Source of the DNA: Spirochaetia bacterium
Lineage (GTDB): Bacteria > Spirochaetota > Spirochaetia > CADAEX01
Length of the DNA: 24,000 bases
Assembly: GCA_963662265.2 (NCBI GenBank)
Contig: CAXXHA010000036.1
Location: 14,247 to 38,246, forward strand
Direction: 5' to 3'
Positions 9,848 through 24,000 of this stretch are shown here, piece after piece. The translations under genes and the position numbers were made by a program. Position 1 is the stretch's first letter; every line of letters starts with the position of its first letter. Below the pieces are notes generated by a model. The model worked only from the letters and a program-made list of their open reading frames with translations. It ran no database searches and was not told where the DNA came from.

Positions 9848-9894
9848 GGCAGAACAGACAGTGTGGGGATAATGTCTGTTCTGCCTCTTTTTTT
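9848..9894 (+). terminator. Rho-independent terminator of pyc
   Basis: Perfect 13-bp stem: GGCAGAACAGACA (9848-9860) pairs with TGTCTGTTCTGCC (9873-9885). The loop is 12 nt, followed by TC and a T7 run (9888-9894). It sits between the convergent pyc and hybrid-kinase genes. On the minus strand the hairpin is followed by AGCAAAATTG, so it is at best a weak terminator in that direction. Confidence 0.85.
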
Positions 9895-9962
9895 ATCAAG
9901 GCGTATTCGCAGAAAATCAGCCAGCCTTGCTTTGAGTCTTAGCTGTATCAGATGCTTAATAT

Positions 9963-12680
9963 TCAGACTCTTGCTTCCAGGGTATTTTCAATTTTTTCGA
10001 GCAGAATTTCGGCATCTTTATACCTGTAGTTTTTTATCATCCTGAACAGGGTTAGTGTATTTTTCCTGGTAGAGTCAGGAAGAATAAAATTCTCGATTTC
10101 TTCCATAATTTCCATACAGCATTTTGGATTATGTTTTTTCACCTTCTGTTTCAGCAGCTCCAGCTGTTTTATCAGCTCTTCAGTTCTTATCTCTGATTTT
10201 CCGTTCTGTTCTTTTTTATTCTGTCCATTCAATATTTCAAAACCTGCTGAAATTGAGTGTATGAGACTCCTGAGTTCTTTGTTGAAATCAATAAACAGCT
10301 GACATTCGGTTTCAGATCCTTTTACCTTTAACTCGCTGTTAAGGAGTTCCGCTTTTTTCATCAGTTCGCAGGCTCCGAGATTTCCTGATGCTCCTTTAAT
10401 TGTGTGAACTGTTCTTGTAACTGCATCCCAGTCATTCCGGATCATTAAATCTGTAATATCATCATCTGCTGTTTTGAAATCTTCATAAAATTTGAGAACA
10501 AGATTTTTAAACAGCTTTTTATTGTTTCCTACCCGTTTCAATCCCTCTTCACAGCTGATTCCGTCTATTTCCGGAATATCACATTCAAACAAACTTTCAT
10601 CTTTAGTATTTGCATTTGTTTCTCTTTCGGCAGGAGCAATCCATTTTACAAGTACGTTCCACAGCTCTCCCGGGTTAAAAGGTTTTGTGACATAGTCATT
10701 CATCCCAATATCAAGGACTTTTTCCTTTACTCCTACCATGGCATCAGCTGTCATAGCTATAATCGGAATATCCTGAAACCGGCTGTCTTTTCTTATCTCT
10801 TTAGTGGCACAGTACCCATCCATTTCAGGCATCTGAAGATCCATCAATACACAGTCATGACTGGTGGATATTTTTGACAGTGCGTCAATCCCGTTCTTTG
10901 CTATATCAACAAAAAACCCTTCATGTTCAAGAAATTCACCTGCAACCTGCTGATTTATTTCATTATCCTCAACAAGAAGTATTTTTGCCCCGATTATCCT
11001 GTTGAAATCTTCCGGTTTTTCTTCGGCATTCTTTCTGATCTTCCCGGCTTTCTGTTGTGACAGTTTTCCGAATACAGATATTATTGTATCCAGCAGCATG
11101 GAAGGATTGACCGGTTTTATAAGGAAGCCGTCCAGGTTATCCCTGTCTGCTTGGCTGATAATATCTTCTCTTCCAATGCTTGTTATCATTATGATTTTAG
11201 GCTGATGTATATTTTCAAGCTTTCTGATTTTTCTAATCAATTCAAAACCATCCATTTCCGGCATCTTGTAGTCAATAAGAGCAAGGTCGTAATTTTTATC
11301 TCCCGAAGCCTGGTTCTGGATAAAATTACGTAAAGCAAGATTTCCATCAGGAAGCGCGGTTGCATCAAAGTTGAAATCATTTAAATAGGAGAGCAGGACT
11401 TCCCTTGCTGTTTCATTATCATCAACAACCATGACTTTTAATCCTGTTAATTCTTCTGCCGCTGTTTTTTTCTTTTCCTCATTCCCTTTCTCCAGTTCAG
11501 CTGTAAAGTAAAAACAGCTTCCTCTGCCGAACCTGCTTTCAACACCTATTTCACCGCCCATTAATTCAGACAGTTTTTTACTGATTGCGAGTCCGAGACC
11601 TGTTCCTCCGTATTTACGTGTTGTAGATGTATCAGCCTGGGAAAATGATTTGAACAGCTTCGCCTTCTGATCATCTGTTAGACCAATGCCTGTATCGGAA
11701 ACTTCAAATCTGATAATGACAGAATTGTCTTTTATTTCCTGGAGACTGACAGTGACGACTATTTCCCCTTCAGAGGTGAATTTAATTGCATTATTTGTCA
11801 GGTTCAGAAGTATCTGCCCGAGCCGGAGTGGGTCGCCTACCAGGTTGTTCGGAATATTGAGGTCCTGGCTGAAAATCAGTTCAAGCTCCTTGTTATTGAC
11901 TTTCTCTCCGATAATGCTTGCCAGGTTATCAAGCACTTCATTAAGCAGGAATCCTGTTTTTTCGATATCCATTTTGCCAGCTTCAATTTTTGAGAAATCA
12001 AGTATATCGTTGATAATTCCGAGCAGGTTGTTGGATGACCGGCTGATTTTATACACATAGTCCTGCTGTCTTTCTGTTAAATCTGTTTTGGTAAGCAGGT
12101 TGCTGAGTCCTATTATTGCATTCATCGGGGTTCTTATTTCATGGCTCATATTTGCCAGAAAGTCGCCTTTTGCTTTTGTTGCTGATTCAGCCTCCTGTTT
12201 TGCCGCAGTAAGCTCATCCATCATTGTCTGAAGTTCAGTGTTTTTCATTTTAATATTATGAAAAAGCGATTCTCTGGTAGGCTGAATAATAAGTTCCCTG
12301 CACTGCTGAAACAAATCTTCTGATAATGTGTTTTTATCCAGTGGTATTTTCAGAAAAACACTTATTGAATCTTTTCTGTTGTCTGATTTATTTATTATGC
12401 AGTTATTAAAAAAGCTTTTCAGTTCAGTTTCTGAAATATCGGAATTGAATGGTGTAATATCAAGTATGAGTTTTTCAGGTTTTTCATTGTTGACACTTAT
12501 AACCAGTTCTGAACATATGATGTTGTTTCCATCCAGGCATACCAGCTCAGAGAGTATTGTTGCGTTTCGGGTTGATTTAATTTCAGAAAAACCCAGAAGC
12601 AGAGATAATTGAAATATCTTTTTCCTGAACATTATCAGGTTAAGATATGTTTCTTCAGTTATTGCCCCTAAATTTATCAT
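9963..12680 (-). CDS. Soluble hybrid sensor histidine kinase (unassigned N-domain, coiled coil, HisKA, HATPase, REC, REC, HPt)
   Basis: 905 aa with no obvious TM segment.
- H-box: [11 protein letters not shown] (His180)
- N/G boxes: [30 protein letters not shown]
- REC1: VVDDNE...[11 protein letters not shown]...LIKP
- REC2: LVEDNE...[11 protein letters not shown]...AMTA...VTKP
- HPt: [12 protein letters not shown]
The ATG overlaps the upstream stop (ATGA at 12677-12680). Confidence 0.9.
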
Positions 12681-13261
12681 TTTACGTTCCTTATAATTAT
12701 ACAGGAAGCATCATCATTTTTACGGAAATTCTTGAACAGCTTTCCTGCAATATCTTCTGATGAGCCTGAAAGCAATCCGGGGAAGTTATCAAGCGGAAGA
12801 TTATCCTTTATACCGTCAGAGCAGAGGATAAGGATATCACCTCTTAAAAGCCTGTCATTTATCATACACGGGTTCGGCATGGAATAACCCAGTACCCCGT
12901 TCCTGGAGATTAAGGATCTCTTTTCAATTCCGTAAATTACCGCGCTTATATTGCCTATTCCGGAAAAAAGAATAGAGTTGTCTTCAGAGCTGATGCAGCA
13001 GGCAGCAGCTACGGCGCCCCTTGTCCCTTTTAGAAATTCATCAAGCCTTGTAATTATTTTTACAGGATCCGGCTCCAGTTTATCCTGCAAAAATATTTCT
13101 ATTTCCTCGGCAAGACCGGCTGCTTCATCCCCATGTCCGAGAACATCAATCAGGACAGCATAGAGATAATCCTCTTTTTCCTGAATTATGGCAGTATCTC
13201 CGCACCCTTTTTCACCGTAAATCGCATCTTTATATATTTTAATATCAAGCAGATTTTCCAC
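12677..13261 (-). CDS. rsbX: Small PP2C/SpoIIE-type phosphatase, RsbX-like
   Basis: 194 aa. PP2C-type motifs: [26 protein letters not shown] and NDDAS. Size and position (directly after the RsbT-like kinase) match RsbX. The GTG start at 13259-13261 abuts the TAG of the upstream gene. GGAGA lies 6 nt upstream. Confidence 0.7.
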
Positions 13262-13687
13262 CTATATTCTCCATTTTGTCACTGTAATCCTGGTTCCCCG
13301 GCCTGTCCCTGATTCTATTTCCAGGGAATCCATTATTTCCTTAACACTGGAAAGTCCGAGTCCAAGGCTGTCCCCTGTTGAATATTCCGGAGCAACAGCT
13401 GCACTGATATCATCAATACCGGGCCCGTCGTCCTGTACAACGATCAGTATGCCGGTTCTTCTGCCGTCTGTTATCTTATGGTAAAATACATGTCCTGAGT
13501 CTGCATAGCGGACAATATTTGTAGTCAGTTCAGATACAGCTGTTGCTATAAGTGACTGCTCGTTTCTGTCGAAATTAAGTTTTTCACAGAATTCCCTTGT
13601 CATTATTACTGAATAGGCAATATCTGCAGAATGCTCAATTTTGATGCTTAACTGTGATTCACTTTTTTTATATTTCAATTCACACAT
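13262..13687 (-). CDS. rsbT: GHKL-type Ser/Thr protein kinase, RsbT-like
   Basis: The ORF track extends to 13756. ATG 13687 gives 141 aa (MCELKYKK...) and overlaps the upstream STAS gene stop by 8 nt (ATGTGTGA). Motifs: N-box AVSELTTNIVRYA, G1 VVQDDGPGI, G2 SLGLGLSSVKE. There is no HisKA domain, i.e. the RsbT/RsbW/SpoIIAB class. Confidence 0.75.
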   Translation of the reverse strand: MCELKYKKSESQLSIKIEHSADIAYSVIMTREFCEKLNFDRNEQSLIATAVSELTTNIVRYADSGHVFYHKITDGRRTGILIVVQDDGPGIDDISAAVAPEYSTGDSLGLGLSSVKEIMDSLEIESGTGRGTRITVTKWRI

Positions 13688-14078
13688 CTGTATATTCCAA
13701 TCCGATTTTTTCCTGGTCAGGGGAGGTGTTTTCCAGCATTTTGATCCCCTCTTCAAGGTCTGATGCTATATTGAGAGAATCAAAATCAACGCTGAGATCA
13801 ACAAGTGTGGATGCAACTCCCGGCTTGAAACCGGTGAAAACAGTCTGTCCTCCCATCAGGCAGATCATTTTCCCTGTCTGGACAAGGGCTGTAAATGTTT
13901 TTCTGTCCATGACATTTATAGCAGAAACATCAACTAGGACTTTTTTCACTGAATGTCTGTTTATTCTTCCAAGTATGTTTTTCTGAAACAGGAGAAGTGT
14001 ATCCAGACTGAAATCTTCCGGAAGCGGAATTATGAGGCAGTCACTTATAATATGGGCATTTAAACTGTTTTCTGCCAT
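13680..14078 (-). CDS. rsbS: Single-domain STAS protein, RsbS-like
   Basis: 132 aa, STAS fold only: LIIPLPEDF...VLVDVSAINVMD...LMGGQTVFTGFKPGVASTL. It lies between the PAS-STAS gene and the RsbT-like kinase, with a 1-nt gap to the upstream stop. The residue after the conserved Asp is Arg rather than Ser/Thr (see findings). Confidence 0.75.
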   Translation of the reverse strand: MAENSLNAHIISDCLIIPLPEDFSLDTLLLFQKNILGRINRHSVKKVLVDVSAINVMDRKTFTALVQTGKMICLMGGQTVFTGFKPGVASTLVDLSVDFDSLNIASDLEEGIKMLENTSPDQEKIGLEYTDV

Positions 14079-14079
14079 T

Positions 14080-14880
14080 TTAAATGCTCTTTTTATTATC
14101 GCTTACTTCAAGGTCGAGTATGCTGAAGGCGCCTCCCAGCGCTTCCTGTAAATTTGAATGAGTCAGAATTGTCCCAAGTTCTACACCAAGGGTGACAAGA
14201 GTCTGTGCAACAGATGGCGATATGCCGGAAATGATGCATTTGCACCCCATAAGGCGGGTTGCTTTTGCAATTTTTATAAGATGGTTTGCTACAGCTGTAT
14301 CAACAGTAGCAACCCCCTGAATATCCAGGATAATTATCTTGGAGGAAGTTTCTTTTAATTTGTTCAGCATAGTATCCATCATCTGCTGGGCCCTGTATGA
14401 ATCCACAACACCTACTATAGGCAGAACGAGGATCCTGTCCCACAGCTGAATAACCGGTGTTGATATTTCGAGAATTGTTCTGCTCTGCTCTTTGAGTTTT
14501 TCCTCTTTTTTTACAACTTCCGAGATATCAATTATATATTCGAGGCCTCCGATTATTTCACCGTCTTTATTCCGAAGGACATCAGCCGTATACTCGATAG
14601 GTACAGGTTTATTGTCAAGGTAAACAATGTTTCTCACAGTTGCAACAGATTCACCATTCATGACATGTTTCATCCTGCAGTTGCCGTTTTTACAGTGATC
14701 CGAATCAAACAGGGTGAAGCAGAAATTTGAATCAATATCCTCCCATTTTGAATTTGTCATTTCCAGACCAGCCTTGTTCATGAATATGATTTTAAAATCT
14801 TTATCAATTGCCATTACAGGAGTGGGGAGCTGGTTGAGGATATCTTCACTGAATGAATTGTTTTTTTCACTTTTATTCAT
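14080..14880 (-). CDS. rsbR: PAS-STAS sensor protein, RsbR-like (stressosome input subunit)
   Basis: 266 aa. The N-terminal PAS-like domain (LPTPVMAIDKDFKIIFMNKAG...DGEIIGGLEYIIDISE) carries a Cys/His cluster. A helical linker follows. The C-terminal STAS domain (ILVLPIVGVVD...ILDIQGVATVDTAVANH...ISGISPSVAQTLVTLG) has both RsbR-type Thr motifs (VDT and AQT). Confidence 0.75.
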   Translation of the reverse strand: MNKSEKNNSFSEDILNQLPTPVMAIDKDFKIIFMNKAGLEMTNSKWEDIDSNFCFTLFDSDHCKNGNCRMKHVMNGESVATVRNIVYLDNKPVPIEYTADVLRNKDGEIIGGLEYIIDISEVVKKEEKLKEQSRTILEISTPVIQLWDRILVLPIVGVVDSYRAQQMMDTMLNKLKETSSKIIILDIQGVATVDTAVANHLIKIAKATRLMGCKCIISGISPSVAQTLVTLGVELGTILTHSNLQEALGGAFSILDLEVSDNKKSI

Positions 14881-15314
14881 ATGGAATTCCGCCTTTTTTA
14901 AAATATTTACTAATTAATTATAGTAAAATAAAATTCAATTCTCCAATTATTCATTAAAAAAACAGGAAATATTATTATTAAAAAAACGGAATAGATAAAA
15001 AATATGTTAATACGCAGACAGGCTGAATCTGTTTCAATAGTTAATGCCGGTTTTAATTAAAAAAAGTAAAATGACATTGTAATCAGCTTTCCAATAAATT
15101 ATATTATTATAATGAATAAAATTATATTTTAAACTAAGGAAGTATTATTCAGAAATAGTGATAATAAAAAGTTGTATAAGAAATTGTTTTTATTTCTAAT
15201 TTATAGCGTAAAGAACCCCTCATCAAATGATTCCTCCATGCAGAATTGCCAGAAGAAATAAATAATCAATTCCTCTGATAATACAAAACAGTTATTTAAT
15301 GAAGGAATTCCGTT

Positions 15315-16424
15315 ATGAAAAATATTTTAAGCAGATCAACACTGCTGCTGGTTGATGATACTCCTCACAATATTGATTTCCTTATCAATACAATTGGAAA
15401 TACTTACAATCTTATAATTGCCACTAATGGTGAAGATGCTCTTGCAGCTGCTGATGAGTCAGTTCCCGATCTTATTCTGCTTGATATTCTGATGCCGGGA
15501 ATGGACGGGTTTGAGGTTTGTACCAGGCTGAAACAGAATAAAAAGACCTGTGAAATACCGGTGATTTTTTTATCTGCGGTTACTGAAGTAGACCAGAAAA
15601 CAAGGGGATTTTCGCTTGGTGCTGCTGATTACATAACAAAGCCTTTTAATGTGCAGGAAGTTTCAGCACGTGTTGAAACTCACCTGGCTGCAAAATTTGC
15701 AAGGGACTGCCTGATGAATCAGAATAATATACTGGAAAATATAGTAAGGGAAAGAACCAGTGAGATCATGGCTACACAGGATATAACAATAAGAATGGCT
15801 GCATCCCTTGCAGAAACCAGGGATAATGATACAGGGAATCATATTATAAGAACACAGATGTATGTGAAGAAACTCGCGGAAAAACTTTCGATGGAGAGTA
15901 AATACCGCAGTCAGCTGGATGATAAAACTATCGATTTGCTTGTTAAATCATCCCCTCTCCATGATATCGGCAAGATTGGTGTAACAGACAGGGTTCTTCT
16001 TAAACCGGGCAGGCTTGATGATAATGAATTTACAGAGATGAAAATGCATACTGTATTTGGCTATAATGCCCTGCTTAAAGCGGAAAAGGAGATGAAGAGT
16101 GATTCTTTTTTGACAATATCAAGAGAAATTGCATATACACATCATGAAAAATGGAATGGAACAGGTTACCCGCAGGGGTTGAAAGGGGAAGATATTCCTC
16201 TTTCAGGAAGAATCATGGCTGTTGCTGATGTTTATGATGCGCTTGTTACAAGAAGAATATATAAGCCTCCTGTAAGCCATGATGAGGCTGTTTCAATCAT
16301 GTGCGAGGGGAGGGGAACTCATTTTGATCCGGTTCTCACTGATTGTTTCCTGCAGATCAACGGGGAATTCAGAACGATAGCTGTAGCTCTTTCTGAAGCG
16401 GATGATATAAAAAATGACTTGTAA
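15315..16424 (+). CDS. Response regulator with HD-GYP domain (RpfG-type putative c-di-GMP phosphodiesterase), copy 1
   Basis: 369 aa. REC: LLVDDTPHNID...LLDILMPGMDG...ITKP. HD-GYP: TGNHIIRT, PLHDIGKIGV, HHEKWNGTGYPQG, ADVYDAL. SD AAGGA lies 8 nt upstream of the ATG. Confidence 0.9.
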   Translation: MKNILSRSTLLLVDDTPHNIDFLINTIGNTYNLIIATNGEDALAAADESVPDLILLDILMPGMDGFEVCTRLKQNKKTCEIPVIFLSAVTEVDQKTRGFSLGAADYITKPFNVQEVSARVETHLAAKFARDCLMNQNNILENIVRERTSEIMATQDITIRMAASLAETRDNDTGNHIIRTQMYVKKLAEKLSMESKYRSQLDDKTIDLLVKSSPLHDIGKIGVTDRVLLKPGRLDDNEFTEMKMHTVFGYNALLKAEKEMKSDSFLTISREIAYTHHEKWNGTGYPQGLKGEDIPLSGRIMAVADVYDALVTRRIYKPPVSHDEAVSIMCEGRGTHFDPVLTDCFLQINGEFRTIAVALSEADDIKNDL

Positions 16425-16485
16425 ACAGTAATAAATAATAATTTACGGGTGAAAATAATAAGTAGCCTTATCAGGGGAGAAAATT

Positions 16486-17601
16486 ATGTCAGATTTTATC
16501 AGTGATGCTGTTGTACTGATTGTTGATGATACTCCGCAGAATATTGATATATTACTTGAATCTCTGGGAGATTTGTATTCTATCCAGGTTGCAGTCAACG
16601 GTAAAGAGGCTCTTGAAGCAGTAGCGGAAGATCCTCCCGATTTAATACTTCTGGATGTTCTGATGCCGGAAATTAACGGTTATGAAGTATGCCGTAGGCT
16701 GAAGAATGATTTCCCGGCTGCTGATATCCCGGTGATTTTTCTCACAGCTCTTTCTGAAATGGATCAGAAAACAAAGGGGTTTGAACTGGGCGCTGTTGAT
16801 TTCATTACAAAACCATTTGATATCCGTGAAGTTAAAGCCCGAGTAAAGACACATCTTGTAAATAAATTCGCAGGTGATTTCCTTAAAAATCAGAACAGTT
16901 TTCTTGAAACAATGGTGAAAAAAAGAACCTTTCAGATAGAAAATATCCAGAATGTCACAATACGGATGGCTGCTTCTCTGGCGGAAACACGCGACAATGA
17001 AACAGGTGATCATATCAAGCGTACTCAAAAGTATGTTGCCGCATTTTTAAATATGCTGTCAGAAGAAAACTTATACCCGGAATATATAAATGAAGAAAGC
17101 ATTGATCTGATGATCAAGTCGGCCCCTCTTCATGATATAGGGAAAATCGGGGTTGCTGACAAAATACTTCTGAAACCGGGAAAACTCACCAATGAAGAGT
17201 TTGATGAGATGAAAAAACATACAATTTACGGGAATGAATCTCTGCTCAGGGCTGAAGAGGAGATTAAAGATGAATCATTTCTCCGCTTTGCCAGGGAAAT
17301 AGCTTATACACATCATGAGAAGTGGGACGGGTCGGGATACCCTGAAGGGGTATCTGGTGACGAAATACCTCTTTCGGGACGAATAATGGCAATTGCAGAT
17401 GTTTATGATGCTTTGATTTCAAAACGGGTGTATAAACCGCCTTTTACACACAGCAAAGCTGTTTCTATTATAAATGAAGGGAAGGGGCATCATTTTGATC
17501 CCGTTCTTATTGAATGTTTTGGCAAAATTGAAGAATCATTCAGGCAGATTGCTCTTGAGTATGTAGAGAGTGATGATGAACGGGAAGCATTATTAAGATA
17601 A
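16486..17601 (+). CDS. Response regulator with HD-GYP domain, copy 2 (tandem paralogue)
   Basis: 371 aa, colinear with copy 1 and roughly 55-65% identical by eye. REC: IVDDTPQNID...LLDVLMPEINGYEV...ITKP. HD-GYP: PLHDIGKIGV, HHEKWDGSGYPEG, ADVYDAL. SD GGGGAG has a 6-nt spacer. Confidence 0.9.
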   Translation: MSDFISDAVVLIVDDTPQNIDILLESLGDLYSIQVAVNGKEALEAVAEDPPDLILLDVLMPEINGYEVCRRLKNDFPAADIPVIFLTALSEMDQKTKGFELGAVDFITKPFDIREVKARVKTHLVNKFAGDFLKNQNSFLETMVKKRTFQIENIQNVTIRMAASLAETRDNETGDHIKRTQKYVAAFLNMLSEENLYPEYINEESIDLMIKSAPLHDIGKIGVADKILLKPGKLTNEEFDEMKKHTIYGNESLLRAEEEIKDESFLRFAREIAYTHHEKWDGSGYPEGVSGDEIPLSGRIMAIADVYDALISKRVYKPPFTHSKAVSIINEGKGHHFDPVLIECFGKIEESFRQIALEYVESDDEREALLR

Positions 17602-17618
17602 AAACACAAAGGTAAAAT

Positions 17619-20600
17619 ATGTATTTATATGATATGAAAAAAACAACTCTTCATGTGATAATGCTTTTTGTCATATTTGGTACAGGAACTGTTTTTCCGC
17701 AGGAAAAGTCCATTTCCAGCTGCAGCGGAGGAATGATTCAGGCAGGGGAGGAAAGGCAATGGGTAAAAGCAGGATTTTCCGGAAATGCTGCAGATGAAGT
17801 ACCTGATTATGAGAACAGATCAATACAGGAAAAATGGTTATCAGTATTTGAATTAAAAGATATTTATGCGGGGGAAAGCAGTGGTAATAAACCTGTTATA
17901 TTCAGGGTGTTTATCCTGGTAACACTGTTTCTTCTGGCAATATTCCTGTTCCAGGGATTTCTTAAAAAGAAAAGCAGCGAAAGTGTTAAATTCGATATAA
18001 GGCGGATGAGAATTACTACTCTTGTGATACTGGCTTTCTGTATGACATGTATTCTTACAATAACAATATATTCAGTCAGAAATATCAGAAATAATGCTGT
18101 AGAAAAAGTGCATGATAATCTTGATGTTGTTCTGTCTACTGTAACTGAAGTTCTTACAAGCTGGATTGACAAAAATCTTACCCAGGTCCGGATGGAAACC
18201 CAGAAAGAAGATTTTGTCTCTCGTGTAAGTAATATAACTGCTGTCCCGTCTGACAGGGAAACATTACTGAAAAGTGAAGAACTCAGGAATTTCCGGGATT
18301 ATTTTTCACGGGAAAATCCGTATTCCTTTTCCGAAGGTTTTTTTATAATATCGGATGACGGGATTAATATTGCGTCACACGATGATGAAAGCATAGGCAG
18401 GGCCAATTTTGTATTTAAAAACCGTCCTGAACTTCTGGAACTCGCATTTCTCGGAAAAAGCATGTTTATTCCCCCTGTTCTCAGAGAAGCAGATGGCTGG
18501 TCTCCCGGTTCATGCAGTCAATCCTGCCTGTTCTATGCTGTTCCTGTTTTAAATTCGGAAAACAATGTTATTGCTGTAATGATACAAAGAGAAGATCCTG
18601 AAAAGGATTTCGGAAGATTCTGCAGGATGGGAAGAATTGGAGAAAGCGGTGAAACCTATGCATTTGACAGAAATGGTTTTATGCTTACAAACAGCCGTTT
18701 TGATGATCAGCTTCTTTCAATAGGTTTGCTGAAAGAGGGATCAGTCAGCGCTCTGAATATACAGCTCAGGGATCCTGGTGTTAATCTGCTTGAGGGGGAA
18801 AACAGCCCTTTAAACAGAGATGATCAGCCGTTTACCTTAATGTTCAGACATGCTTCAAGCAGCGAATTCGGTTATAACATCGAGGGGTACCGCGATTACC
18901 GGGGAGTTGATGTTTTCGGTGCCTGGCGATGGTTTGATGAATATAATTTCGGTATTGCATCGGAAATAGATATTACAGATGCTTTGAGTTCCTATTCCAC
19001 GATACAGACTGCAATTTATATTATCATTGCAATAGCCTTTTTCCTTGCTTCGGGAACAACACTTTTCAGTATTCATACAGGCGAAAGGGCGAATAAGTCG
19101 CTCTCAGAGGCAAATGAAAATCTTGAAAAGAGAGTTGCTATGCGGACTGCAGAACTTTCAGAAGCAAGAAACAAGACAGAGGCAATTCTTGAGGCTTCAA
19201 CAAACGGAATAATCACTATTGACGAAAAAGGGATTATTGAAACTTTCAATCCGGCAGCAGAACATATTTTCGGCTACAGTAAAGATGAAGTTATAGGGCA
19301 GAATGTGAAAATCCTGATGCCTTTGGAGTATTCCGAAAAACATGACGGGTATCTCGGTAATTATATTGATACAGGAATAAAGATGGCTATAGGGCGAAGG
19401 TTTGAAAAAGAGGGACTGCGGAAATCCGGACAGCTGATACCTCTTGAAATAGGCATTAATGAAGTACATCTTAAAGACAGGCGTCTTTTTACTGCAATTA
19501 TGAATGATATTTCCGAGAGGAAAGCTTCTGAAGAAGCTCTTATAACGGCTAAAAGAAACAATGAATTTGCAGCAGAGACAGCAGGTCTTGCCTACTGGGA
19601 ACAGGATTTAACAGAAAAAACATTTACTGTTAATGACAGTTTTTTCAAGCTTGCTGATACAAGTTATGTTAGGGAAGGCTGTTATGTTTATCCTGTCAAT
19701 GAATTCCTTGACCAGTTTGTATATCATGGAGACCTTGACAAGGTTGTTGAAAAATTTTTAGAAGCTGAAAAAACAACATCAGACATTGCAGATCAGTTTG
19801 AATACCGGCTGGTCCTCCGGAGCGGAGGATTCAGGTACGGGTATATGAAATATTTTGTGATTCATGACAGCCATGGAAATGCTGTTAAAATTACAGGAAT
19901 ACATCTTGATATTACAGAAAGAAAAAAAATAGAAATGGAGCTTGCAGAGGCAAAAGAAGCAGCTGAAGCAGCGGCAAAGATAAAGTCTGATTTTCTCGCA
20001 AATATGAGCCATGAAATAAGGACTCCTATGAATGCTATCATCGGGCTGTCCCATCTTATAAGCAAAACAAGGCTTACGAAAAAGCAGGAAGATTATATCC
20101 ATAAAATATTCGGCTCTGCCCACAATCTGCTTGGCATTATAAATGATATTCTGGATTTTTCAAAAATAGAAGCTGGAAAGCTTGCTATGGAATCAGTTGA
20201 TTTTGATCTTAATGAAGTTTTTGATAATCTTGGCAACATGATAGCGGGAAAGGCATATGATAAGAAACTGGAGCTTGTATTTCATGTAAATACAGATGTT
20301 CCTGTGAAACTTGTCGGTGATCCTCTCCGCCTGGGGCAGGTGCTGCTGAACCTTGCAAATAATGCTGTCAAATTCACCGAAGCAGGTGAAATTGCTGTAT
20401 CTGCTGAACTTGTGAATCTTGAAAACAATGAAGCTGAAATAAAATTCATAGTCCGTGATACAGGGATCGGACTCACAGAAGATCAGATGAACACCCTTTT
20501 TCAGGCTTTTTCCCAGGCAGATACTTCAACAACCAGAAAATACGGAGGGACCGGACTGGGGCTTTCGATCAGTAAGAAGCTTTCTGAAATGATGGGCGGC

Positions 20601-22163
20601 CGTATCTGGGTTGAGAGTATATTCGGCGAAGGTTCAACATTTTATTTTACCGGAAAATATAAAGTCAGGCATGTTGAAACACATAAGATTTTTCCGGCAG
20701 GACTCCGCGGTCTTGATGTTCTGATTGCTGATGATAATTCCACCAGCCAGAAAGTTCTACTTGAATATTTGAAGGATTTTGAATTGAATCCTGTTGCGGT
20801 GGATAATGGCACAGAAGCTGTTCAGATAATCAGGAAGAGACTGGAAGATGGAGTTAAGGGGTTTGATCTTGTGCTTCTGGATTTCAGCATGCCTGGTCTT
20901 AATGGATTTCAGACAGCTGAAAAAATAAATGAAATACTGGGTAAGAATGAAAGGCCGAGATATATACTTGTAACAGGATTTGGCCGTGATGAAGTTATCA
21001 ATGGTATTGAAAGATACGGGTTTGAAGGATTCCTTCTGAAACCGGTCAATCAGTCGCTCCTGTTCAATACAATTATGCAGGCTTTCGGCCGTGAAAGAAA
21101 AGATACAGGAAAAACAATAACAGAAAAATTTCCGAACGGCTTTGACAGCATCAGGGGCGCTGAAATACTTCTTGTAGAGGATAATGAAATCAATCAGCAG
21201 GTAGCAAGGGAGGTGCTTGAAAGGGAAGGTTTCTCTGTTGATGTTGCTGATAATGGGGAGATTTCTCTTGAGATGCTGTCTGAAAAAAAATATGACCTGG
21301 TATTGATGGATCTGCAGATGCCTGTAATGGGGGGAGTCGAGGCAACAGGAGAGATCAGGAAGAATGATGAATTTAAAGAACTCCCTGTTATTGCAATGAC
21401 TGCAGATGCAATGTCAGGGGTCAGGGAAATGGTCCTTGAAAAAGGGATGAATGACTATATTACAAAACCTATTGAGCCGTATTTTCTATGGAAAACAATG
21501 GTTAAATGGATTGTGCCGGGAGAAGGGAAATTTTCTGATATCAACAGAATGGAGAGACCTTCTGAGGAAGCAGGGGAAATTCCTGAAATTGATGGGCTTG
21601 ATATCAATTCCGGATTAAACCGGATGTCCGGTAATTTCGAGCTTTATAAAAATCTTCTGATAAAGTTTTTCAGGGAATATACAGATTTAAGCATGATAAT
21701 TTCTGAAGATGCGGAAAACGGCCGAACAGATGATGCTGTAAGGACTGCCCATTCTGTTAAGGGGGTGTCTGGTAATCTTGGCGCGACAAAGATCCAGGTT
21801 AAAATGGCTGATATCGAGAACAAGCTTAAAAACAGTAAAGATTACAGAGACGATCTTTCTGAGGCTGAATCAATGATTCGTAATCTCGCTGAAAAGGCTG
21901 AAAAAGCAGGGCTTCTTGAAAACCAGGAGGAGCCTTCAGATAAAAGTATGGAGATTTCCAGGGAAGAGCTTACTGCCAGGCTGACAATAGCTGTCGACTC
22001 TCTTTCAAGGAGAAAGCCCAGGACTGCTATTACTGTGCTTGAAGAGCTGGGAAAGTGTGATTTTGACAAAGAAACCGGGGAAAAACTATCTGAAGCAAGG
22101 ACTCTTCTTGCAAGATACAGGATGAAAGAGGCTTCAGAGCTGCTCAGGGGTATAATAGGCTAG
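17619..22163 (+). CDS. Membrane hybrid sensor histidine kinase (Cache-like periplasmic domain, 2 PAS, HisKA, HATPase, REC, REC, HPt)
   Basis: 1514 aa with four hydrophobic segments (about aa 11-27, 93-115, 132-153 and the AIYIIIAIAFFLASGTTLFSI helix).
- The ~310-aa segment between TM3 and TM4 is Cache-like: GETYAFDRNGFMLTNSRF, YRDYRGVDVFGAW
- PAS: ILEASTNGIITIDEKGIIETFNPAAEHIFGYSKDEVIGQNVKILMP
- H-box: [11 protein letters not shown]
- HATPase: DTGIGL, GGTGLGLSISK
- REC1: LLDFSMPGLNG
- REC2: LMDLQMPVMGG
- HPt: HSVKGVSGNLGA. Confidence 0.9.
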   Translation: MYLYDMKKTTLHVIMLFVIFGTGTVFPQEKSISSCSGGMIQAGEERQWVKAGFSGNAADEVPDYENRSIQEKWLSVFELKDIYAGESSGNKPVIFRVFILVTLFLLAIFLFQGFLKKKSSESVKFDIRRMRITTLVILAFCMTCILTITIYSVRNIRNNAVEKVHDNLDVVLSTVTEVLTSWIDKNLTQVRMETQKEDFVSRVSNITAVPSDRETLLKSEELRNFRDYFSRENPYSFSEGFFIISDDGINIASHDDESIGRANFVFKNRPELLELAFLGKSMFIPPVLREADGWSPGSCSQSCLFYAVPVLNSENNVIAVMIQREDPEKDFGRFCRMGRIGESGETYAFDRNGFMLTNSRFDDQLLSIGLLKEGSVSALNIQLRDPGVNLLEGENSPLNRDDQPFTLMFRHASSSEFGYNIEGYRDYRGVDVFGAWRWFDEYNFGIASEIDITDALSSYSTIQTAIYIIIAIAFFLASGTTLFSIHTGERANKSLSEANENLEKRVAMRTAELSEARNKTEAILEASTNGIITIDEKGIIETFNPAAEHIFGYSKDEVIGQNVKILMPLEYSEKHDGYLGNYIDTGIKMAIGRRFEKEGLRKSGQLIPLEIGINEVHLKDRRLFTAIMNDISERKASEEALITAKRNNEFAAETAGLAYWEQDLTEKTFTVNDSFFKLADTSYVREGCYVYPVNEFLDQFVYHGDLDKVVEKFLEAEKTTSDIADQFEYRLVLRSGGFRYGYMKYFVIHDSHGNAVKITGIHLDITERKKIEMELAEAKEAAEAAAKIKSDFLANMSHEIRTPMNAIIGLSHLISKTRLTKKQEDYIHKIFGSAHNLLGIINDILDFSKIEAGKLAMESVDFDLNEVFDNLGNMIAGKAYDKKLELVFHVNTDVPVKLVGDPLRLGQVLLNLANNAVKFTEAGEIAVSAELVNLENNEAEIKFIVRDTGIGLTEDQMNTLFQAFSQADTSTTRKYGGTGLGLSISKKLSEMMGGRIWVESIFGEGSTFYFTGKYKVRHVETHKIFPAGLRGLDVLIADDNSTSQKVLLEYLKDFELNPVAVDNGTEAVQIIRKRLEDGVKGFDLVLLDFSMPGLNGFQTAEKINEILGKNERPRYILVTGFGRDEVINGIERYGFEGFLLKPVNQSLLFNTIMQAFGRERKDTGKTITEKFPNGFDSIRGAEILLVEDNEINQQVAREVLEREGFSVDVADNGEISLEMLSEKKYDLVLMDLQMPVMGGVEATGEIRKNDEFKELPVIAMTADAMSGVREMVLEKGMNDYITKPIEPYFLWKTMVKWIVPGEGKFSDINRMERPSEEAGEIPEIDGLDINSGLNRMSGNFELYKNLLIKFFREYTDLSMIISEDAENGRTDDAVRTAHSVKGVSGNLGATKIQVKMADIENKLKNSKDYRDDLSEAESMIRNLAEKAEKAGLLENQEEPSDKSMEISREELTARLTIAVDSLSRRKPRTAITVLEELGKCDFDKETGEKLSEARTLLARYRMKEASELLRGIIG

Positions 22164-22224
22164 AGAAACTGGTATTAAAATACAATAAAAATCGGGGAAG
22201 CAGTTGATCCAGAAAGGATGAATT

Positions 22225-22575
22225 ATGATTTTAATAGTAGATGATACACCTTCTAATATTGATATTGTCATGGAAATAATAGGTGAAATTGATGATGTTG
22301 CTGTTGCTCTTGACGGAGAAGAAGCACTAGAAATTATCAAAGAGGATATTCCCGATATTGTTCTTCTTGATATTGTAATGCCTGGAATAGATGGTTTTGA
22401 AGTATGCAGAAGAATTAAGGGAAATCCTGATACGGAAAAAATAGCTGTAATATTTCTTTCGGGAGATGGGGCTGAAGAGGAGAAGTCAAAAGCCGGAGAA
22501 ATTGGAGCCTCCGGTTTTCTTGAAAAGCCGATTGATCCTGAAAAACTGCTTGCAGCAGTAAAAGCTTTTATATGA
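22225..22575 (+). CDS. Stand-alone receiver (single-domain response regulator)
   Basis: 116 aa, REC only: LIVDDTPSNID...LLDIVMPGIDGFEV...VIFLSG...LEKP. SD AAAGGA has a 6-nt spacer. It lies 61 nt downstream of the large kinase. Confidence 0.85.
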   Translation: MILIVDDTPSNIDIVMEIIGEIDDVAVALDGEEALEIIKEDIPDIVLLDIVMPGIDGFEVCRRIKGNPDTEKIAVIFLSGDGAEEEKSKAGEIGASGFLEKPIDPEKLLAAVKAFI

Positions 22576-22650
22576 AAAGAATATTGAGAAGAGATGCCTG
22601 ATATGTTTTCCAGCTGAGAGTGGAATTCATATATAATTACCATATCATTC

Positions 22651-22679
22651 TTGACTTCTGAAAATCATAATCCTATCCT
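22651..22679 (+). promoter_or_regulatory. Candidate sigma70-type promoter for the binding-protein/sensor pair
   Basis: TTGACT (22651-22656), a 17-nt spacer, then TATCCT (22674-22679), about 39 nt upstream of ATG 22718. This is a pattern match only, in a 142-nt spacer. Confidence 0.3.
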
Positions 22680-22717
22680 TAAATTTAACTGTAAAATAAT
22701 TAAAAAAGGGTTGTTGA

Positions 22718-23677
22718 ATGCCGGTTCTGTTTAAATCTAAATACTGCATTATTTGTCTTCTAGTAATTCTCACCTGTACTGTGCTGCTTTCAGGATGTTT
22801 TTCAGAATCCGGAAAAAAAGAAGCGGAAAAAGATGCCGGGTTAAACAGCCCGGTTTATTCTGATTCCGTAAGCGGCAAAAAACTTGTGATAGGTGATGTT
22901 TCAGATGAGCCTACTAAAAAAATAAGAAGGTATCAGCCTTTTGCTGAATATATTGTTTCAGAAGACAGAATTCCCGGATACGGCATCGGAGAAGTATATG
23001 TAACAGATTCACTGGAAAAAATGACAGAGGAATTTGAAAAAGGCAATGTCCACATAATTATTGAGGGAGCTTACAATGCCCTGAAAATAGCTGATAAGGC
23101 AGGGGCCTGCCGGATACTTCTGAACAACAAGGAGGGGCTGATATTTTTCAAAAGTTATTTTATAGCACTCAAAGATTCTCCCTGCAGCAGCCTTGAAGAT
23201 CTGGGCGGTAAAACACTGGCTCTTGAAGATACCGAGTCCACATCAGGTTATTTCCTGCCGATTCTTGAACTTCAGAAAAACAATTTCAATGTTTCCGGTT
23301 TGAACGGAAATAATGAATATCTCAAGACAGTACTATCAGGCGAGGATGAAATAATTATTCAGGATCTTTTTGACATGAGGGCGGATGCCGGGGTGTATTC
23401 TGAATATGATTTCGAAGAACTTAATAAAAATGTCAGGGAAAAGCTTAAAGTCATACATGTTACAGAAGCGCTTCCGCGGAGTCTTCTTATTCTTTCCCCT
23501 GCATTGAGTAAATCCGACTGTGAAAGGATTTCTGATACCTTACTTGAGTTGAGTAATTCTGAACAGGGAAAATCCATGCTTGAACATATCAACTCTGATG
23601 GTTTTTATTCTGTCAGGGATTTCAGCATTGCGGAAAATAATCTTGATTTATTAATGGAAAAAGCCGGTGAAATATGA
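22718..23677 (+). CDS. PhnD-like (phosphonate/phosphite-type) periplasmic substrate-binding lipoprotein
   Basis: 319 aa. Lipoprotein signal ...ILTCTVLLSG|C. PhnD-family-like motif EDTESTSGYFLP. No ABC permease or ATPase gene is adjacent. The stop overlaps the likely start of the next gene. Confidence 0.7.
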   Translation: MPVLFKSKYCIICLLVILTCTVLLSGCFSESGKKEAEKDAGLNSPVYSDSVSGKKLVIGDVSDEPTKKIRRYQPFAEYIVSEDRIPGYGIGEVYVTDSLEKMTEEFEKGNVHIIIEGAYNALKIADKAGACRILLNNKEGLIFFKSYFIALKDSPCSSLEDLGGKTLALEDTESTSGYFLPILELQKNNFNVSGLNGNNEYLKTVLSGEDEIIIQDLFDMRADAGVYSEYDFEELNKNVREKLKVIHVTEALPRSLLILSPALSKSDCERISDTLLELSNSEQGKSMLEHINSDGFYSVRDFSIAENNLDLLMEKAGEI

Positions 23678-24000
23678 ATTAAGAAAATGGATAAGCAATA
23701 AATACAACTCATTCCAGTACAGGGTACTGATGATCTTTTTTTCTGTACTGATGCCTGTCATGATGGTGATATTTATAATTACTGCCGCAAACGAGGTGAG
23801 TTTTTACAACAATTATATCAATGAGACAGGGCATTTTTTTGCAGATGTAATAGAAAACAGTATCAGCGACAGCCTCTATTTCAAGGAATATTTCAGGATA
23901 GGGGATATTTTTGACAAAACAGTTATGAATTCGGACTACACATCCTGCAGAATTTACGACAGAAGAGGTATTCTTATTGCCAACAGCAATAATGATATTT
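23667..24000 (+). CDS. Membrane sensor protein, N-terminal fragment (output domains lie beyond the window)
   Basis: An open frame runs to the window end and is not in the ORF track because it is unterminated. GTG 23667 gives MKYELRKWISNKYNSFQYRV, a positive-inside N-terminus, followed by the TM helix LMIFFSVLMPVMMVIFIITAA and then a non-hydrophobic (presumably periplasmic) segment. It overlaps the upstream gene by 11 nt. ATG 23730 (AGGG 5 nt upstream) is the alternative start. Confidence 0.55.
   Translation, partial: MKYELRKWISNKYNSFQYRVLMIFFSVLMPVMMVIFIITAANEVSFYNNYINETGHFFADVIENSISDSLYFKEYFRIGDIFDKTVMNSDYTSCRIYDRRGILIANSNNDI

Follow-up and report, generated by a model that had tools for sequence, protein, structure and literature searches.

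The 266-aa RsbR-type protein encoded in the window (the whole 24,000-nucleotide stretch of Spirochaetia bacterium DNA analyzed here) carries an N-terminal PAS domain with three invariant cysteines, and we propose that this domain is an iron-sulfur sensor, probably with a [4Fe-4S] cluster, through which a stressosome whose output is a c-di-GMP phosphodiesterase would respond to redox state or O2. We put the probability of this reading, which is drawn from sequence comparisons, at roughly 0.6. An iron-sulfur cluster is favored over other metal, redox or thiol options because the closest characterized relative of the domain is the [4Fe-4S] PAS domain of OrpR, and confidence was held at this level because the window protein has Thr (T56), not an acidic residue, two positions past the first cysteine.

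The RsbR-type sensor and its conserved cysteine site

The rsbR-like gene (14080..14880, minus strand) was defined as an open reading frame with Pfam PAS_4/PAS_9 and STAS matches, and its product consists of a PAS domain, a linker helix and a STAS domain. A first-pass annotation made from the sequence had read the N-terminal part as a PAS fold, and this reading held up: residues 15-123 (14512..14838, minus strand) matched PAS_4 (E 3.7e-9) and PAS_9 (E 7e-9) in Pfam, and an AF2 model of the N-domain and Foldseek gave the same assignment. DSSP on the full-length model placed the linker helix between PAS and STAS at residues 120-137 (14470..14523, minus strand), and the Pfam STAS domain spans residues 147-247 (E 1.4e-16; 14140..14442, minus strand). 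By the sequence of this STAS half the protein is unmistakably of the RsbR type; its best PDB match was Vibrio vulnificus RsbR (7o0i, E 1.3e-45), and Listeria RsbR matched it at E values of about 1e-26 to 2e-26. In a HMMER alignment to Listeria RsbR, S161 (codon 14398-14400, minus strand) fell opposite the T of 'DTERA' and T195 (codon 14296-14298, minus strand) opposite the T of 'VDT'. We take these positions to be those of the RsbT-phosphorylated threonines of RsbRA, T171 and T205. The first RsbT target position is therefore a Ser in the window protein, in contrast to the Thr of Bacillus and Listeria RsbR; among the RsbR-type homologs described below, S161 is kept in 121/121 and T195 in 120/121.

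A word-indexed search with residues 1-130 as the query yielded 17 PAS-STAS homologs (aligned as A1), and a profile search yielded more than 120 full-length RsbR-type matches with E below 1e-129. We scored 121 full-length homologs, whose N-domains are 41-72% identical (median 48%) to that of the window protein. The first-pass annotation had pointed to a cluster of three cysteines and two histidines, C54, H62, C63, C68 and H72 (codons 14665-14721), in an otherwise cysteine-poor protein. The residue numbers and codons were correct, and the description as cysteine-poor was fair, the sole further cysteines being 213 and 215, both in the STAS domain; the histidines of the protein are at positions 62, 72, 200 and 241. 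Co-conservation of all five residues was found only in part. C54, H62, C63 and C68 are present in every one of the 121 homologs, but position 72 (codon 14665..14667, minus strand) is His in 5/121 and mostly Q (62), K (23) or N (10). Because it is kept in just five homologs, H72 was excluded, and the conserved site as read from the alignment is C54-x7-H62-C63-x4-C68 (14677..14721, minus strand); from this alignment and the comparison with OrpR-type proteins, the segment holds the putative iron-sulfur ligands.

Eight further residues are invariant among the 121 RsbR-type sequences: N35, M70, R83, E96, Y97, G111, G112 and E114. By the alignments, the invariant H62, M70, R83, E96 and Y97 are confined to the RsbR and chemoreceptor branch; they could adjust the cluster or form a pocket for a small ligand. 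That M70, R83, E96 and Y97 are invariant here and are not common to OrpR-type activators counts against an iron-sulfur site, as does the adjacency of H62 and C63, since neighboring residues are awkwardly placed to bind the same center.

The AF2 model of the N-domain, built from 12 sequences, reached a pLDDT of 89.2 and a pTM of 0.79, and the full-length model had a pLDDT of 78 with YtvA (2mwg, E 2.7e-16) as its best Foldseek match. With the N-domain model, Foldseek retrieved LOV, DosP heme-PAS and NifL FAD-PAS domains at TM 0.72-0.80 and 12-19% identity; searching PDB sequences with just the N-domain gave one insignificant match (E 0.69). In the model C54 starts Eα, H62 and C63 lie in the next short helix or loop, and C68 sits directly ahead of Fα (residues 69-74). 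The Eα-loop-Fα segment closes the PAS cofactor pocket. Inside the fold, pLDDT dips at the triad segment alone (87 and 80 for residues 51-60 and 61-70, versus 92-96 elsewhere). The modeled positions support the view that the conserved cysteine cluster belongs to the part of the PAS domain that binds cofactors.

Homology to OrpR and a wider family of cysteine-triad PAS domains

OrpR (DVU2106) is a sigma-54 activator of Desulfovibrio vulgaris Hildenborough whose PAS domain is a [4Fe-4S] redox sensor (PMC8359166). Sensing requires C52, C61 and C65; mild oxidants convert the [4Fe-4S]2+ cluster to [3Fe-4S]1+, the cluster is lost in air, and the activator is off once the potential of the medium climbs ~140 mV (PMC8359166). 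The three cysteines lie 5-8 Å apart in a model of OrpR, and the conserved D/E54 was put forward as a candidate for the fourth ligand (PMC8359166).

We linked the window protein to D. vulgaris OrpR via P0272, an OrpR-type relative from a Desulfonatronovibrio MAG that was defined by synteny: it adjoins three Nitro_FeMo-Co and two CbiA-Fer4 genes. Such a neighborhood of Nitro_FeMo-Co and CbiA-ferredoxin genes is, we assume, the make-up of the orp cluster, which Fievet and colleagues reportedly described in 2011. The motif of P0272, C-x-E-x6-C-x3-C, has the exact spacing of OrpR C52/E54/C61/C65. BLASTP aligned the RsbR N-domain with P0272 at E 5e-12 (29% identity over 116 residues), pairing all three cysteines with a single-residue gap ahead of the third, and hhalign of the RsbR alignment A1 against 28 OrpR-type activators (A4) scored 98.8% (E 5e-17) over 141 columns. 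Judged by these alignments, the window N-domain is homologous to OrpR-type PAS domains, with the three cysteines aligned. It counts against iron-sulfur that the assignment is one of 29% identity to a family with one studied protein.

The genome to which the window belongs has a PAS-AAA+-HTH sigma-54 activator of its own (L012:6528-7925), with the motif CSDVFRSSICEGSC of the form C-x-D-x6-C-x3-C. It matched the RsbR N-domain at E 9.5e-12, and its family comprised 6987 matches, including Desulfovibrionales members at 71% identity. A sigma-54 promoter upstream of rsbR was considered as a link to this OrpR-like activator and rejected; loose matches numbered 49 in the window versus 55 expected, and the match in the rsbR intergenic region lacks the -12 GC.

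OrpR and the window RsbR are alike in their PAS fold, in three cysteines that align with one another and in their anaerobic hosts. The spacing differs, being C-x8-C-x3-C in OrpR and C-x8-C-x4-C in the window protein, so that the second gap is three residues in the one and four in the other with all three cysteines still aligning; written with the acidic position, C-x-[DE]-x6-C-x3-C of OrpR faces C-x-[DE/T]-x6-C-x4-C of the RsbR branch, one residue having been inserted. The acidic residue two positions after the first cysteine is shared by OrpR and 99 of the 121 RsbR-type homologs (82%, D/E), whereas the window protein has Thr. The residue ahead of the second cysteine is an invariant His in the RsbR branch and I, M, V or L, never His, in OrpR-type proteins (183 triad copies, 120 activators). 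Finally, OrpR acts through an AAA+ transcription activator, whereas the window RsbR has a stressosome STAS domain as its output.

The N-domain was also run as a HMMER query against all of 1.84 billion representatives, and this exhaustive search returned 3608 matches below 1e-3 and 629 below 1e-10. Most of the best 150 of the 3608 matches were long and carried the domain two to five times (range 1-5), and a Pfam scan of 85 among the best matches found the MCP signaling domain in 47, HAMP in 44 and STAS in 4. The cysteine-triad PAS arrays of these soluble chemoreceptors and kinases of anaerobes are the nearest sequence relatives of the window N-domain and have the C-x8-C-x4-C spacing in common with it; they differ in output, which is MCP, HAMP or a kinase in the arrays, as opposed to STAS in the window protein. 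Every named family member came from an anaerobe (Desulfobacterales, Desulfamplus, Desulfobacter, Desulfobacula phenolica, Oleidesulfovibrio, Desulfovibrionaceae and Spirochaetales). The impression recorded in the first-pass annotation, that similar cysteine-bearing PAS variants occur in sensors of anaerobes, was thus confirmed by the homolog searches of the N-domain family, in which they are common.

Conservation was scored over 322 related PAS copies in 167 proteins. C54 was present in 298 copies and C63 and C68 in 299 each (~93%), near the top of family conservation, with higher scores for N35 and G111 alone. The triad spacing was 8/4 in 272 copies, 8/3 in 12 and 7/4 in 9 (n=293). Position 65 was Thr in 256 of the 322 copies and position 56 was Asp or Glu in 211. 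Position 62 was His in 182 (57%, compared with 100% in the RsbR branch), Asp in 55 (17%) and otherwise hydrophobic. When mutual substitution of D/E56 and H/D/E62 was examined across the 293 triad copies as a test for a fourth ligand, the two did not complement each other significantly (Fisher p 0.34), and at least one of the two was present in 95% of these copies.

Alternative cofactors and known PAS sensors

A Zn(II) ion held by C54, C63, C68 and H62, whether as a structural brace of the helical segment of the PAS domain or as a zinc-releasing thiolate switch responding to redox or electrophiles, would account well for the RsbR branch, where all four residues are found in 121/121 homologs and make up the standard Cys3His zinc set; that an invariant Cys3 plus His is also the classic zinc set counts against iron-sulfur. 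Nevertheless, we consider zinc unlikely. The fourth position varies in the wider family (H 57%, D 17%, else hydrophobic) and is I, M, V or L in OrpR-type activators, and because of this variability only three ligands would be universal, as in the OrpR iron-sulfur site. WalK has a zinc-regulated cytoplasmic PAS domain (10.1101/405365), but its ligands are His, Asp and Glu and lie elsewhere in the domain. The homologous OrpR domain was shown with an iron-sulfur cluster and not with zinc (PMC8359166). Zinc would, moreover, leave the restriction of the family to anaerobes unaccounted for. A metal-free switch that reports oxidants through a reversible disulfide (e.g. C63-C68) or another thiol modification would suit three clustered cysteines in the cytoplasmic sensor of an anaerobe, and thiol switches are known in PAS-bearing kinases such as ArcB. 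We give this little weight, since a two-cysteine switch has no need of three invariant cysteines and an invariant histidine, and since the homologous OrpR domain bears its cluster on the equivalent cysteines.

Heme b in the PAS pocket, with an axial Cys, His or Met (H62, M70 or a cysteine) as in the RcoM and DosP types, is hardly to be expected. H62 and M70 are invariant and the DosP heme PAS was the top Foldseek match of the N-domain model (TM 0.75), but this fold match is generic, with LOV and FAD PAS domains scoring alike, and three invariant cysteines are needless for heme ligation. Ferrochelatase and ALAD were not found in the 90.6%-complete genome, and the 266-aa protein has no CXXCH, which also agrees with the earlier remark that the cluster is not a c-type heme motif. 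A c-type heme PAS of the Geobacter GSU0582/0935 type was rejected on similar grounds, there being no C..CH anywhere in the 266 residues. None of these options displaces an iron-sulfur cluster as the preferred reading of the site.

Two further types of sensor were compared with the window protein. YtvA of Bacillus subtilis (LOV-STAS, 2mwg) has the same PAS-linker helix-STAS architecture and matched the window RsbR at HMMER E 1.8e-17. The LOV signature around the photoactive cysteine is of the NCRFLQ type. A LOV or flavin PAS was rejected, as the context of C54, SNFCFTLFDS, is without such a signature and the likeness is at the level of the fold alone; YtvA has one cysteine where the window RsbR has three invariant ones. 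The PAS domain of Staphylococcus carnosus NreB is a [4Fe-4S] O2 sensor, and Bacillus licheniformis NreB is a [2Fe-2S] sulfide sensor with three cysteines and a labile exogenous fourth ligand (PMC13478379). NreB resembles the proposed sensor as a cytoplasmic iron-sulfur PAS, and the B. licheniformis protein is a precedent for a three-cysteine sensing cluster. However, a site of the NreB type was rejected, its spacing being C-x2-C-x11-C(-x2-C) (PMC13478379) versus C-x8-C-x4-C in the window RsbR. Searching the PDB with the window N-domain did not retrieve NreB by sequence, and the output of NreB is a histidine kinase rather than STAS.

The stressosome operon, its proposed output and its host

Downstream of rsbR, on one strand (minus) and with stops and starts overlapping or abutting, lie four genes. 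These are an rsbS-like STAS scaffold gene (13680..14078; Pfam STAS, with Listeria and B. subtilis RsbS at E 1e-14 and 2e-13), an rsbT-like GHKL serine kinase gene (13262..13756; Pfam HATPase_c_2 / HATPase_c) whose true start is likely the ATG at 13687, overlapping rsbS, an rsbX-like PP2C phosphatase gene of the SpoIIE family (12677..13261; Pfam SpoIIE, E 1.7e-9) and a gene for a hybrid histidine kinase of 905 aa (9963..12680; HisKA-HATPase-REC-REC-Hpt in Pfam). A degenerate RsbT copy in the N-terminal part of this kinase was considered and rejected, since BLASTP of its residues 1-160 against RsbT gave nothing significant (E 3.5). Divergent from this operon are two genes for REC-HD-GYP response regulators (15315-16424 and 16486-17601, plus strand; Pfam Response_reg and HD_5) with intact HHE..GYP motifs, and a second hybrid kinase of 1514 aa comes after the pair. 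We presume that the 905-aa hybrid kinase is the target of RsbT and that the REC-HD-GYP regulators provide a c-di-GMP phosphodiesterase output. The order RsbR-RsbS-RsbT-PP2C-hybrid kinase is kept in four relatives, namely one metagenome contig, Desulfobacula phenolica, an Oleidesulfovibrio sp. and a Spirochaetales MAG. The hybrid kinase of the metagenome contig is HisKA-HATPase-REC-Hpt, and in Desulfobacula, Oleidesulfovibrio and the Spirochaetales MAG the operon continues past the hybrid kinase with a REC-HD_5 (HD-GYP) gene.

We hypothesize that C54, C63 and C68 ligate an iron-sulfur cluster inside the PAS pocket, with H62 as a fourth ligand or a second-sphere residue. The cluster would be intact at the low potential of the anaerobic cell, and a rise in redox potential or the entry of O2 would oxidize or degrade it. 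The linker helix may relay the resulting change in the PAS domain to the STAS core, and the altered core would in turn change the capture of RsbT and phosphorylation at S161 and T195. Freed RsbT might then activate the adjacent hybrid histidine kinase, whose Hpt domain would feed the REC-HD-GYP phosphodiesterases and so lower c-di-GMP. Because the window RsbS has no phospho-acceptor Ser (the residues are D58-R59, with Arg at the acceptor position), Bacillus-style release may not hold unchanged.

The stressosomes of V. vulnificus and V. brasiliensis comprise a heme-globin RsbR, RsbS, RsbT and RsbX with a two-component module downstream (PMC9237108, PMC4976288). The window operon is similar in its rsbRSTX order, in having a histidine kinase and a response regulator downstream in place of RsbU or sigma-B, and in an O2 or redox input, which is presumed in both systems. 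It differs in that a cysteine-triad PAS replaces the heme globin as sensor, the host is an anaerobe, and RsbS has Arg at the phospho-acceptor position. By analogy, the window stressosome may combine Vibrio-like wiring with a cofactor suited to strict anaerobes.

What stressosomes sense is a long-standing gap. To our knowledge, light (YtvA) and O2 via heme (Vibrio) are the only defined inputs. The first-pass annotation had suggested that a Cys/His-cluster PAS would be a different class of stressosome input, and in agreement with this our literature search turned up no paper on a stressosome with an iron-sulfur or cysteine-triad PAS input; it likewise turned up none on chemoreceptors with a cysteine-triad PAS domain, and a 2023 census of PAS domains mentions iron-sulfur for NreB alone. 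We see an even chance that this is the first iron-sulfur-sensing stressosome and that dozens of PAS domains with three cysteines (plus the histidine) set c-di-GMP by redox, O2 or a small ligand. If so, c-di-GMP in anaerobes (sulfate reducers and spirochaetes) would be controlled by a megadalton hub, a small ligand, for instance sulfide or NO, might bind at a non-cysteinyl iron, and in the x4-spaced branch with its His the cofactor would sit in an environment different from that in OrpR, one common to many soluble chemoreceptors. OrpR, the one studied iron-sulfur PAS of its type, would gain a second signaling architecture, and the far larger chemoreceptor branch with the same motif would come into view. 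The more than 120 RsbR proteins of cultivable sulfate reducers and spirochaetes, for which a cofactor site is clearly predicted and the c-di-GMP output is conserved, would offer a directly testable signal-to-output system in anaerobes.

The host genome is 3.77 Mb in size and 90.6% complete. Its three FlaA periplasmic-flagellum genes, of which 14 control genomes have 0, mark the host as a spirochaete. Four genes of the [FeFe]-hydrogenase type are also present, and searches of this 90.6%-complete genome for heme-copper oxidase (COX1), cytochrome bd, ferrochelatase and ALAD found none. The presence of hydrogenases together with the oxidase and heme-synthesis genes not being found fits a fermentative anaerobe without heme synthesis. 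Among 40 relatives, the RsbR N-domain was found in 0 at E 1e-15, two congeners included, and the RsbR STAS in 1 at 1e-10. DNA synteny with the congeners ends at window position ~9894, just past the pyruvate carboxylase gene. This break and the missing N-domain in relatives suggest that the signaling cluster, from ~9.9 kb to at least 24 kb and with no GC anomaly detected, is an accessory island.

Arginine at the RsbS phospho-acceptor position

Comparison of the RsbS-like protein of the stressosome operon with Listeria and Bacillus RsbS placed an arginine (residues D58-R59; 13902-13907, minus strand) at the site of the serine that RsbT phosphorylates in those proteins. The same D-R-K-T motif was found in the RsbS of a Spirochaetales MAG (L020), and D-S is retained in the RsbS of four other relatives (L014, L015, L018 and L019). 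The arginine of the window protein, together with its recurrence in L020, suggests that a spirochaete sub-lineage may have a stressosome that dispenses with RsbS phosphorylation.

Signalling genes around the operon

In a DNA comparison with two congeners (73-81% identity), synteny breaks off at approximately position 9894 of the window, just past the pyruvate carboxylase gene. Neither congeneric genome has a syntenic counterpart of the stressosome operon, of the two REC-HD-GYP genes (15315-16424 and 16486-17601, plus strand) or of a 1514-aa hybrid kinase, and there is no GC shift across the region from about 9900 to 24000. This region looks like an accessory signalling island.

The 1514-aa kinase (17619-22163, plus strand) is encoded 3' of the REC-HD-GYP genes and comprises a weak dCache match, PAS, HisKA, HATPase, two REC domains and Hpt; it may feed an extracellular signal into the same output as the stressosome. 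Its PAS domain was not matched when we searched the organism's own genome with the RsbR N-terminal domain, and we therefore consider it to lack the Cys triad. The 905-aa hybrid kinase of the operon begins with 160 residues (12201-12680, minus strand) that have no Pfam match and no BLASTP similarity to the operon RsbT; this segment is a candidate RsbT-receiving module.

Just upstream of rsbR, three relatives encode a large protein of multi-PAS or kinase type that contains SBP_bac_3; its gene directly adjoins rsbR in two of them (L014:1-2438 and L018:1908-5957) and is separated from it by three small genes in the third (L020:1-4152). This protein is a possible conserved partner, and is absent in that form from the window.

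Cys triads in other PAS proteins

The organism's own genome also encodes an OrpR-type PAS-sigma54-HTH activator with the motif C-x-D-x6-C-x3-C (L012:6528-7925, contig C35). No orp genes adjoin it at that locus, where it is flanked by a metallophosphoesterase gene and genes for large OmpA, cadherin-like and LamG surface proteins.

When the PAS-STAS homologues of the window RsbR were aligned, one record (P0013) diverged totally over about 30 linker residues (columns about 136-165) and then returned to register, a pattern that suggests either a compensated frameshift or a misassembly behind this record. Remote PAS relatives (25-30% identity) occur in Planctomycetota/Brocadiaceae MAGs (L001-L007; for example, L001:5989-6390) and carry a third triad variant, C-x10-C-x2-C ('...KCY..LW...SPC..C...'), so that the second cysteine is displaced.
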